The notes under the pieces: generated by a model
Databases searched by the model: none
What the model saw: only the letters and a program-made list of their open reading frames with translations
Told to the model about the DNA's origin: nothing
Virus record (IMG/VR): IMGVR_UViG_2663763171_000006
Reading direction: 5' to 3' (one strand)
DNA: 5,421 bases
Source of the DNA: a virus
Lineage: Duplodnaviria > Heunggongvirae > Uroviricota > Caudoviricetes
In this document: positions 1,699 to 5,421 of the stretch, piece after piece
Layout of the letters: each line of letters opens with the position of its first letter
Position numbering within the stretch: the stretch's first letter is position 1
Position numbers and translations under genes: made by a program

Positions 1699-2193
1699 AT
1701 GGCTGGAACGGCGGGGCGTTCCGGGCGTCGCCCCAAGCCAACGGCGCGCAAGGCGCTGGCCGGAAACCCCGGCAAGCGAGCCCTGAACAAAGATGAACCT
1801 GTTTTTACGCCCATCAAAGGTGTTGAGCCACCAGAGTGGTTCGCTGAAGAAGATCTCCCTCTCGCCACGATCATGTGGCAACTGACAACCAAAGAACTCT
1901 GCGGTCAGGGCCTGCTGTGCGTGACTGACCTGGCGGTACTTGAGCGGTGGTGCGTGGCCTATGAGTTCTGGCGACGTGCCGTGAAAAATATTGCCATACA
2001 GGGCAACACCATCACCGGTGCAATGGGCGGCAGGGTCAAAAATCCGGAGCTGACCGCCAAAAAAGAACAGGAGTCCGAGATGAGCAGCACGGGGGCAATG
2101 CTCGGACTCGACCCCAGCAGCCGCCAGCGTCTGATTGGCCTGGCGGGGCAGAAGAAAGCCACTAACCCGTTTCTGAAAATTATCGAATCATGA
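1699..2193 (+). CDS. Terminase small subunit (P27 family-like)
   Basis: About 165 aa with a basic N-terminus ([22 protein letters not shown]) and conserved position between HNH and large terminase. AGGAG SD at 1686-1690 sits 8 nt upstream of the ATG at 1699; the GTG at 1690 used by the ORF track lies inside the SD and is unlikely to be the start. The stop overlaps the large terminase start (ATGA at 2190-2193). Confidence 0.7.
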
Positions 2194-3923
2194 GCCGGAA
2201 ATCTTACCCCAACGTAAATGCTGCAAATCAGTATGCCCGGGATGTCGTGCGCGGAAAGATTGTTGCCTGCCAGTTTGTGATTCAGGCCTGCCAGCGCCAT
2301 CTTGATGACCTGATGGCGGAAAAAAGTAAGTCGTTTCGTTACCGCTTCGACAAGGACCTGGCTGAACGGGCCGCGAAATTTATTCAGCTGTTGCCGCACA
2401 CCAAGGGGGAGTGGGCATTCAAACGGATGCCCATCACGCTGGAGCCGTGGCAGCTATTTGTGATCTGCTGTGCGTTTGGCTGGGTCAATAAAGGCACCCG
2501 GTTGCGCCGCTTCCGGGAGGTGTACACCGAAATCCCCCGTAAGAACGGCAAATCAGCAATCTCTGCCGGTGTTGCCCTGTATTGTTTTGCCTGTGATAAC
2601 GAGTTTGGCGCGGAAGTGTATTCCGGTGCCACGACAGAGAAACAGGCGTGGGAAGTCTTTCGCCCGGCGCGACTGATGTGTAAACGCACACCCATGCTGA
2701 CGGAAGCGTTCGGGATTGAGGTTAACGCCTCAAACATGAACCGTCCGGAGGATGGCGCGCGGTTTGAACCGCTGATCGGCAACCCAGGTGATGGTTCATC
2801 ACCCCACTGTGCCGTGGTTGATGAATATCACGAGCATGCCACCGATGCGCTTTATACCACAATGCTTACCGGGATGGGGGCGCGACGTCAGCCACTGATG
2901 TGGGCCATCACCACCGCCGGGTACAACATTGAGGGGCCGTGCTACGACAAGCGGCGGGAAGTCATCGAGATGCTCAACGGCTCGGTGCCTAACGATGAAC
3001 TGTTCGGGATCATCTATACCGTTGATGAAGGTGACGACTGGACCGGCCCGCAGGTGCTGGAAAAAGCCAATCCAAATATTGGCGTGTCGGTTTATCGCGA
3101 ATTTTTGTTAAGTCAGCAGCAGCGTGCGAAAAATAACGCCCGTCTGGCAAACGTCTTTAAAACAAAACACCTCAATATCTGGGTGTCGGCGCGTTCGGCG
3201 TATTTCAACTTGGTGAGCTGGCAGAGCTGCGAGGATAAATCACTGACCCTTGAGCAGTTCGAGGGGCAGCCGTGCATTCTGGCCTTTGACCTGGCGCGTA
3301 AGCTGGATATGAACAGCATGGCGCGACTTTATACCCGCGAGATTGACGGTAAAACGCATTACTACAGTGTGGCCCCGCGTTTCTGGGTACCGTATGACAC
3401 GGTGTACAGCGTCGAGAAAAATGAAGATCGACGGACAGCCGAACGCTTTCAGAAATGGGTGGAAATGGGCGTTCTGACCGTTACCGATGGTGCGGAGGTG
3501 GATTATCGCTACATCCTCGAGGAGGCCAAAGCGGCGAACAAAATCAGCCCGGTCAGTGAGTCACCCATCGACCCCTTCGGGGCGACCGGGTTGTCACATG
3601 ACCTTGCTGATGAAGACCTGAATCCCGTCACTATCGTCCAGAACTTCACCAATATGTCCGATCCGATGAAAGAGCTGGAAGCAGCGATTGAATCGGGACG
3701 TTTTCATCATGACGGCAATCCCATCATGACCTGGTGTATCGGCAACGTGGTCGGCAAAAACATGCCGGGTAACGATGATGTGGTGAAACCCGTCAAAGAG
3801 CAGGCGGAAAACAAAATCGATGGTGCAGTTGCGCTGATTATGGCGGTTGGCAGAGCCATGCTGTACGAGAAAGAAGACACGCTGTCTGACCACATTGAGT
3901 CCTACGGGATCCGCTCGCTTTAA
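2190..3923 (+). CDS. Terminase large subunit (Terminase_1 / HK97-type TerL: ATPase plus nuclease)
   Basis: 577-aa ORF with a Walker A-like motif ([12 protein letters not shown]), acidic Walker B-like segments (e.g. CAVVDEYHE) and a C-terminal nuclease-like region containing acidic residues. Size and synteny (TerS, TerL, portal) are typical. Confidence 0.85.
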
Positions 3924-3934
3924 CTGAGGTAATT

Positions 3935-4117
3935 ATGATCATGCTGATTCTCGCGCCTCTGGTGGGCGTGCTGGGTGCGCTTTTGCTGGCGTATGGTGCC
4001 TGGCTGATTTATCCCCCGGCGGGTTTTGTTGTTGCCGGGGCGCTGTGCCTGTTCTGGTCGTGGCTGGTGGCGCGATATCTCGACCGTACACGGCAGTCTG
4101 TCGGCGGAGGTAAATAG
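3935..4117 (+). CDS. Hypothetical small membrane protein (60 aa, two predicted TM helices)
   Basis: GAGGT SD lies 5 nt upstream of the ATG. Two hydrophobic helices ([22 protein letters not shown] and [19 protein letters not shown]) are separated by a PPAG turn, with a basic C-terminal tail. Host-like codon usage (CTG, GCG, GTG rich). The 3' end carries the SD (GGAGG 4106-4110) and overlapping start (TAGTG) of the portal reading frame. Confidence 0.5.
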
Positions 4118-5273
4118 TGTTCTTTTCGGGATTATTTCAACGAAAAAGCGATGTGCCGGTGACCACGCCAGCAGAACTGCTGATGCTATCGGGCTGTCAT
4201 ACGACACCTATACCGGAAAGCGGATCAGTAGCCAGCGGGCCATGCGCCTGACGGCGGTCTATTCTTGCGTCAGGGTGCTGGCAGAGTCTGTTGGTATGCT
4301 GCCCTGCAGTCTCTACAAAATCAGCGGTACCCTGAAAACACGGGCGGTGGATGAACGACTGCATAAGTTGGTTTCGGCAAAACCTAATGGCTACATGACA
4401 CCGCAGGAATTCTGGGAGCTGGTTATTGTCTGCCTGTGTCTACGGGGGAATTTTTACGCCTACAAGGTAAAGGCACTGGGAGAAGTGGTGGAGCTTCTTC
4501 CGATAGATCCGGGCTGTGTGGAACCGAAGCTGAACAGCCAGTGGCAGCCGGTTTATCAGGTGACGTTTCCGGATGGTTCCGTGGATGTGTTGACCCAGAA
4601 TGAAATCTGGCATGTGCGCACCCTGACGCTGGATGGACTTGTCGGGCTGAATCCCATTGCGTATGCGCGTGAGGCCATTTCACTGGCAGCGGCAACCGAG
4701 GAGCACGGTGCCAGGTTGTTTAGTAATGGTGCGGTGACATCCGGTGTGTTGCGTACGGAACAAAAGCTCACGCCGGATGCTTACGAGCGTCTGAAGAAAG
4801 ATTTTGAGGAGTGTCACACGGGGCTTGGCAATGCTCACCGCCCGATGATTCTGGAAATGGGGCTGGACTGGAAGTCGATGGCGCTGAACGCCGAGGACAG
4901 TCAGTTCCTGGAAACCCGCAAGTTTCAGCTGGAAGAAATCTGTCGTCTGTTCCGGGTGCCGTTGCACATGGTGCAGAACACCGATCGCGCCACCTTCAAC
5001 AATATCGAAGAGCTGGGGCTGGGATTTATCAACTATTCACTGGTGCCGTATCTGACCCGCATCGAACAGCGGATCAACACCGGACTGGTACGAAAAAGTA
5101 AGCAGGGCGTTTATTACGCCAAATTTAACGCCGGGGCGTTACTGCGCGGGGATATGAAGTCCCGTTTTGAAGCCTACGCCACCGGGATCAACTGGGGAAT
5201 TTACTCTTCCAATGACTGCCGCGACCTGGAAGATATGAATCCGCGTCCCGGTGGTGTAATGCCGATCAGTTAA
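4117..5273 (+). pseudogene. HK97-family phage portal protein, apparently disrupted (N-terminus in a different frame; 3' end abutting or interrupted by an IS element)
   Basis: A strong start (GGAGG, 6-nt spacer, GTG at 4117) opens a frame encoding a portal-like N-terminus (FFSGLFQRKSDVPVTTPAELLMLSG) that stops at 4249-4251. The conserved portal core (TGKRISSQRAMRLTAVYSCVRVLAESVGMLP ... LLRGDMKSRFEAYATG ... LEDMNPRPGG) is in the -1 frame (the ORF track's 4026..5273 frame). That frame has no ATG or GTG between 4035 and 4242 and a Cys/Arg/Trp-rich out-of-frame-looking N-terminus. The reading frame ends inside the inferred IS terminus. Confidence 0.6.
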
Positions 5274-5305
5274 GGATCAGTTGACCGATCCAGTGGCTGT
5301 GTAAG

Positions 5306-5340
5306 AATCCGGAAACGCTCACTTGTTTCCGGATTTTTTT
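5306..5340 (+). terminator. Perfect 11-bp hairpin plus T-run immediately upstream of the transposase start (intrinsic terminator / translation-occluding structure)
   Basis: AATCCGGAAAC (5306-5316) pairs perfectly with GTTTCCGGATT (5325-5335) around the 8-nt loop GCTCACTT, followed by a 7-T run at 5334-5340 (the first two Ts are in the stem). The ATG at 5341 follows at once. Confidence 0.5.
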
Positions 5341-5421
5341 ATGCACATTGGACAGGCTCTTGATCTGGTATCCCGTTACGATTCTCTGCGTAACCCACTG
5401 ACTTCTCTGGGGGATTACCTC
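5341..5421 (+). CDS. IS4-family (DDE) transposase, N-terminal 27 codons (partial, 3' truncated by window end)
   Basis: ATG at 5341 follows the hairpin/T-run directly with no SD. The translation MHIGQALDLVSRYDSLRNPLTSLGDYL is recalled as the start of the IS4 transposase (InsG). Only 81 nt are visible. Confidence 0.5.
   Translation, partial: MHIGQALDLVSRYDSLRNPLTSLGDYL

Follow-up and report, generated by a model that had tools for sequence, protein, structure and literature searches.

A portal gene with a one-base deletion and an IS4 insertion in an HK97-like prophage of Shigella sonnei

The portal gene in the window (the whole stretch of DNA analysed, 5421 bases) is very probably a true pseudogene, bearing two lesions that are independent of each other and situated in a decaying HK97-like prophage of the Shigella sonnei chromosome; this reading is given a probability of about 93%. 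Over its whole length the window matches CP000038.1, the chromosome of S. sonnei Ss046 (PMC5447701), with 100% identity. The loss of one G at 4179 shifts the frame after codon 21, and ribosomes starting at the GTG at 4117 would make a 44-residue peptide and halt at 4249-4251. IS4, inserted at 5257 in the 12-bp target GTCCCGGTGGTG, takes away the last 33 codons. A later IS-mediated rearrangement would then have parted the 5' portion of the gene from its former downstream DNA in the S. sonnei chromosomes examined. Nothing found contradicts this reading at the DNA level. As far as its sequence tells, the locus is a pseudogene of the HK97 portal family and not a functional member. The cut-offs of both PF04860 and TIGR01537 are passed. 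TerS, TerL and ymfR lie directly 5' of the gene, as in a head module, but in S. sonnei IS4 and chromosomal genes lie 3' of it; protease and capsid genes follow on the 3' side only behind the IS4 of one further contig (L032, see below). A single uninterrupted full-length frame of about 413 aa is no longer present, owing to the 1-nt deletion and to IS4.

The authentic start of the gene is the GTG at 4117-4119. A Shine-Dalgarno sequence, GGAGG at 4106-4110 (+), lies 6 nt 5' of this codon and is found unchanged in phiP27, E. coli A36 and ST64B. The GTG overlaps, as TAGTG, the stop codon (TAG, 4115-4117) of a gene for a 60-aa ymfR-like membrane protein at 3935-4117 (+), and this same overlapping start is also annotated in phiP27, in E. 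coli A36 and in e14 of E. coli K-12. Homologues of the ymfR-like gene are labelled 'protein YmfR' or 'membrane protein' and are located directly 5' of the portal gene in E. coli, phiP27 and ST64B. Translated in the original frame, the start and first 21 codons, 4117-4179 (+), match L38 of phiP27 and Sb4 of ST64B. The ORF opened by the GTG (4117-4251) encodes 44 aa, of which the 21 portal-matching residues are followed by LMLSGCHTTPIPESGSVASGPCA and a stop. This out-of-frame tail, 4180-4251 (+), ends with the TGA at 4249-4251, and a Pfam search of the 44-aa ORF yielded no match. From ADAIGLSYDTYTGK onward the match to intact portals moves to the other frame. The portal core, codons 22-380 of about 413, is read at 4179-5256 (+) in the -1 frame relative to the GTG start, within an ORF at 4026-5273. 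The Phage_portal model PF04860 matches this ORF with an E value of 3.3e-107 and 358.8 bits (cut-off 39.1), from position 2 to 321 of the 321 model positions. The match begins at residue 77 of the ORF, just past an ATG at 4242. Before the domain, the only starts in the core frame are the TTG codons at 4026, 4029 and 4032, all inside the upstream gene, and the ATG at 4242, which has no Shine-Dalgarno sequence before it (the upstream sequence is GGATCAGTAGCCAGCGGGCC).

Most of this arrangement had been read from the DNA in an earlier note. The GTG at 4117, with GGAGG 6 nt upstream and the TAGTG overlap, had been named as the best start; its coordinates were verified, and it does open the true portal frame. 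The HK97-type portal N-terminus read from it is confirmed by the 21 residues matching intact portals such as phiP27 L38, and the stop was located where it had been placed, at 4249-4251. The core had been assigned to the -1 frame, where the PF04860 and TIGR01537 matches were indeed obtained, and this frame had been described, correctly, as being without a plausible start other than the internal TTG codons and the unsupported ATG. The note would have given way had intact portals started at the equivalents of the TTG at 4026 or the ATG at 4242; the intact relatives start at the overlapping GTG instead.

The deletion is located at 4179-4180 (+), where one G of an ancestral GG has been lost, changing CTG GCT to CTGCT. 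A four-way DNA alignment of 4080-4300 (window, phiP27, E. coli A36 and ST64B) contains exactly one gap, at 4179/4180, with invariant flanks; at the gap the window reads GAACTG-CTGATGCT and the relatives read GAGCTGGCGGATGCT. Against phiP27, 1139 aligned nt contain a single gap, and the result is the same for every S. sonnei locus. Relatives of the region were found in 1394 E. coli chromosome or plasmid records and in 20 phage records. Sixty E. coli homologues were sampled at even rank steps among 1385 matching records, and the extra base (a record span 1 longer than the query) is present in 58 of the 60, all annotated as portal protein; the other two rows are partial matches 3' of the deletion site, so that their span is not interpretable. 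Intact alleles with GAACTGGCTGATGCT were found in an IMG/VR contig (L026; 94.8%) and in a metagenome sequence (L033; 81%), both distant from the window, and because these two read so, the ancestral codons are given as CTG GCT GAT (L A D). A near-identical intact allele was sought in order to date the deletion; none close to S. sonnei was found, only L026 and L033. With the missing G restored, the site would read GAACTGGCTGATG, with GAACTGGCTG as its intact-allele form. Re-insertion of one G yields a 380-aa product with a gap-free, end-to-end alignment to phiP27 L38. The peptide across the repaired junction of this portal of ~380 residues would be ...TTPAELADAIGLSY..., and the repaired protein matches the TIGR01537 portal_HK97 equivalog at 263.7 bits (cut-off 112.05), covering model positions 3-343 of 343.

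A 1-nt deletion making the portal a pseudogene had been the first choice of the earlier note, and it is upheld by the single gap against phiP27 and by the extra base in the 58 interpretable homologues. The alignment with intact portals from relatives, which the note had proposed as a check, placed the indel at 4179. The position given for the frame switch, at about 4186-4200 and possibly at the GGG at 4191-4193, has to be corrected: the only indel is at 4179/4180, about 10 nt further upstream. An indel at the GGG is ruled out, the GGG being unchanged in the intact relatives.

The missing base is a fixed mutation in every S. sonnei assembly examined and not a read or assembly error, since the deletion is base-for-base alike in all 26 other assemblies and contigs with this allele, the Ss046 chromosome included. 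All 20 S. sonnei loci that were fetched match 4117-4260 exactly; they comprise complete chromosomes, long-read assemblies and short-read drafts, and the deleted allele is also present in 6 further IMG/VR contigs. A sequencing or assembly indel, with the real gene intact at 4179, was the other explanation offered earlier. One-base indels are a common artefact, and some long-read assemblies of the same locus carry private ones, for example at 2059, 2289, 2787 and 4013. Against such an error stand the identity of the deletion in the 26 other records (the Ss046 reference, other complete chromosomes and short-read drafts among them), the nature of the site, which is a GG dinucleotide and no homopolymer, and the behaviour of the artefactual indels, which are private to single assemblies and lie elsewhere. 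When 25 records were compared base by base with the window, private 1-base indels were seen at 1669, 4013, 2059, 2289, 2787, 2320, 2405 and 5413; in these records none was seen at 4179 and none restored the frame. Private indels at other positions are the pattern expected of assembly errors. The earlier alternative is refuted by the sharing of the deletion, and its probability is negligible. Neither the allele that has the extra base nor the one that lacks it was matched in a scan of species-representative genomes (0 matches), which shows only that S. sonnei is absent as a representative there.

A programmed -1 ribosomal frameshift, or some other recoding between 4117 and 4249, would join the two frames into a near full-length portal. 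The ORFs overlap by ~130 nt, in the geometry that a -1 shift needs, and an A5 run is present at 4143-4147. However, no X XXY YYZ heptamer occurs in the zero frame of 4117-4251, where only partial triplets are found. The A5 run is also present in the intact relatives. It is placed 32 nt before the deletion, and 11 conserved residues would therefore be scrambled by a shift at that point. The portal is encoded in one frame in phiP27, ST64B and E. coli A36, where it is a single ORF of 413-414 codons, and in all 58 interpretable E. coli homologues; a recoding signal is therefore not conserved. Were the frame corrected, the product would still be without its C-terminus, because of IS4, and without capsid partners at the locus. 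Recoding is thus given almost no weight, in line with the earlier judgement that programmed frameshifting was much less likely because a slippery heptamer had not been seen.

One point noted against the pseudogene is the ORF beginning at the ATG at 4242, which is open, retains the whole Pfam portal domain (PF04860) and is called by gene callers as a 343-aa gene in many assemblies. The exact product is found in 1695 blocks of the collection, and the adjoining genes (TerS, TerL, HNH and lysis) are both intact and invariant. A shortened portal-domain protein of 343 aa, ending in VMPIS, could on this account be made from the internal ATG and retained for some function, but this is considered improbable. 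The ATG lacks a Shine-Dalgarno sequence and simply corresponds to Met43, which is conserved inside intact portals. The product would be short of 42 N-terminal and 33 C-terminal residues, and protease, capsid and tail genes do not follow. Invariance within S. sonnei is expected from recent common ancestry and is uninformative on selection.

The second inactivating lesion, which the earlier note missed, is the IS4 element at 5257. Portal homology ends at 5256. The left end of IS4 occupies 5257-5421 (+); it reads TAATGCCGATCAGTTAAGG... from 5257, its terminal repeat starts with TAATGCCGATCAG, and the ATG of its transposase is at 5341. The sequence 5257-5421 matches elements annotated as 'IS4-like element IS4 family transposase' that sit in unrelated places in E. 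coli, the shared part starting with TAATGCC, and in E. coli the IS4-end sequence abuts the unrelated genes mlc and torT. In one S. sonnei locus (L007) the complete 442-aa transposase of this IS4 copy matches NF033592 at 303.8 bits (cut-off 115). The last 33 portal codons are replaced by an IS4-encoded VMPIS and a stop. The left junction at 5257 is exact in all of the S. sonnei loci long enough to include it (17/17). Some IS4 matches apparently begin 16 nt before 5257; these were rejected as chance similarity of target sites, the true end being TAATGCC at 5257.

The 12 bp at 5245-5256 (+), GTCCCGGTGGTG, are probably the left copy of a target-site duplication. The right copy was obtained from L032 (IMGVR_UViG_2663762996_000003, 1-13286), which shares the G deletion and the IS4 site with the window. 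There the right IS4 end reads ...CTGGCATTA and is followed by GTCCCGGTGGTG and ATGTC..., continuing into the portal 3' end; the two sides of this right-hand junction are CTGACTGGCATTA (IS4) and GTCCCGGTGGTGATGTC (portal). As GTCCCGGTGGTG also stands directly before IS4 in the window, the event indicated is a simple insertion that duplicated 12 bp of the target. Target-site duplications of IS4 are 11-13 bp long. The duplication is absent from the right IS4 flank in the S. sonnei chromosomes, where unrelated DNA is present, which points to a later rearrangement.

Behind its IS4, L032 contains the portal 3' end and protease, capsid and tail genes, which are ST64B-like (97%). Position 2819 of the scaffold is an N, and the 376 nt before it (2443-2818) bypass IS4 and differ from the true right flank at 3 positions; the probable cause is a misjoin of the scaffold or a second copy of the prophage. 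L032 was also considered as a deletion allele without IS4, and this was ruled out, since 2443-2818 precedes the N, has 3 mismatches to the right flank and is misjoin-like. Because of the N and the probable misjoin, L032 was used only for the right-hand junction. Among viral contigs the right-junction pattern was found in L032 only. The exact capsid protein of L032 is widespread in Enterobacteriaceae, according to a protein search and a cluster look-up.

A complete IS4 directly next to raiA-pheL-pheA-tyrA-aroF was found in three S. sonnei loci (L007, L008 and L021). In the remaining S. sonnei loci IS4 is truncated by an IS2-like element (ORFs of 121 aa and 301 aa), which is followed by bamE-recN. 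The junction spans compared were 5257-5421 of the window, 9068-10493 of L007 and 9068-11500 of L010. The differences from strain to strain after IS4 look like IS-mediated inversion or deletion at the locus. Downstream of IS4, homology comparison of 7 S. sonnei loci with 6-kb flanks detected neither the portal 3' end nor protease or capsid genes, and these are likewise absent after IS4 in all 17 S. sonnei loci that reach past it. Since the right side of IS4 is not portal DNA in S. sonnei, the IS-mediated rearrangements would have come after the insertion. With the portal 3' end, protease and capsid genes missing downstream, neither a functional portal nor a virion is to be expected from this locus; to judge from the sequence, the prophage should be unable to form particles from it.

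The genes upstream of the portal are in better condition, and the decay of the prophage is accordingly partial, as TerS, TerL, HNH and the lysis genes are still intact. The gene for the large terminase subunit at 2190-3923 (+) is intact and encodes 577 aa. Pfam TerL_ATPase and TerL_nuclease domains were assigned on an identical product, and the exact 577-aa protein was found by exact look-up in many S. sonnei assemblies. This context is the DNA-packaging module of an HK97-like prophage of the phiP27/ST64B/e14 type. An HNH endonuclease (1227-1577) and a P27-family small terminase (TerS, 1690-2193) precede the large terminase, and both are intact. A typical lambdoid lysis cassette consists of a holin (11-226), a lysozyme (226-723) and an Rz-like spanin (708-1184), with an Rz1-like lipoprotein ORF (940-1122) embedded in the spanin gene in the +1 frame; all of these appear intact. 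It is conceivable, though very improbable, that the intact lysis cassette, HNH, TerS and TerL genes, together with a protein re-initiated at the ATG at 4242, are kept for a host- or satellite-related function, or that the head-tail module found behind the IS4 of L032 survives at another place in the S. sonnei chromosome through an IS4-mediated inversion. In the latter case the prophage would be split and could be reconstituted by recombination. The doubly inactivated pseudogene is preferred.

HNH, TerS and TerL are invariant across S. sonnei assemblies, although the adjoining portal gene is dead. Apparent splits of TerS or TerL in three records (L019, L023 and L025) coincide with private 1-base indels at 2059, 2289, 2320, 2405 and 2787 and are probably long-read assembly errors.

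Within the HK97 portals, the gene is placed by its sequence in the phiP27/ST64B/SfII/e14 head-module group. In phiP27 (an Stx2e phage; NC_003356.1), with its portal L38 (NP_543090.1), and in E. coli A36 (WP_240745495.1), the gene order is TerL, 60-aa membrane protein, portal, protease and capsid. The window shares with both the GGAGG and the GTG overlapping the upstream stop, and the DNA identity is about 96% across 3900-4700. In phiP27 and A36 one ORF of 413 aa encodes the portal, with the protease and capsid genes behind it; in the window one G is missing at 4179 and IS4 interrupts the gene after codon 380. The portals of Salmonella phage ST64B (Sb4) and of the Shigella flexneri phages SfI, SfII and SfIV belong to the same type of HK97 head module, at about 85% DNA identity; their N-terminal peptide (29 residues) is identical to that of the window, and these portals are intact. 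In E. coli K-12 the defective prophage e14 contains a ymfR homologue and, behind it, a portal pseudogene (beeE) with the same overlapping start codon, a further case of this gene decaying in a resident prophage. Its lesion is different: a 408-nt 5' fragment of the portal gene is fused by a deletion to a baseplate gene fragment, and the G absent from the window is kept.

According to Hawkey et al. 2020 (PMC7373316), the five IS that have expanded in all Shigella species include IS4, and for 719 S. sonnei CDS (14%) at least one genome has an inactivating IS, nonsense mutation or frameshift. In comparison with this IS-driven degradation in Shigella the portal locus shows no difference in kind; the gene here has both an indel and IS4. 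The S. sonnei locus is one more case of the well-described decay of prophages through IS and indels. The process is of an already known kind, with nothing novel or surprising in it, and the significance of the case is little beyond annotation hygiene.

Pseudogenes of this kind are handled badly by gene callers, and artificial proteins thereby enter the protein databases. In the gene table of Ss046 a 414-aa 'portal' is listed from the TTG at 4029, overlapping ymfR (window 4029-5273). In many other assemblies the product is the one of 343 aa from the ATG at 4242 (window 4242-5273). Both artificial 'portals' end in VMPIS, encoded by the terminal repeat of IS4.

Inside IS4, just 5' of the transposase ATG at 5341, a perfect hairpin CCGGAAAC-GCTCACTT-GTTTCCGG is followed by a T7 run (5309-5340). 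The hairpin looks like an inward-facing intrinsic terminator, which could block read-through from the portal gene into the transposase. In the lysozyme gene (226-723), all 20 mismatches between one record (L027) and the window are confined to 246-444, and the remainder of the 5 kb is identical. Two other records (L008 and L029) also start to differ from the window in the region between 246 and 444. The pattern suggests that the endolysin gene carries a mosaic segment, or recombinational patch, in prophages that are otherwise identical.
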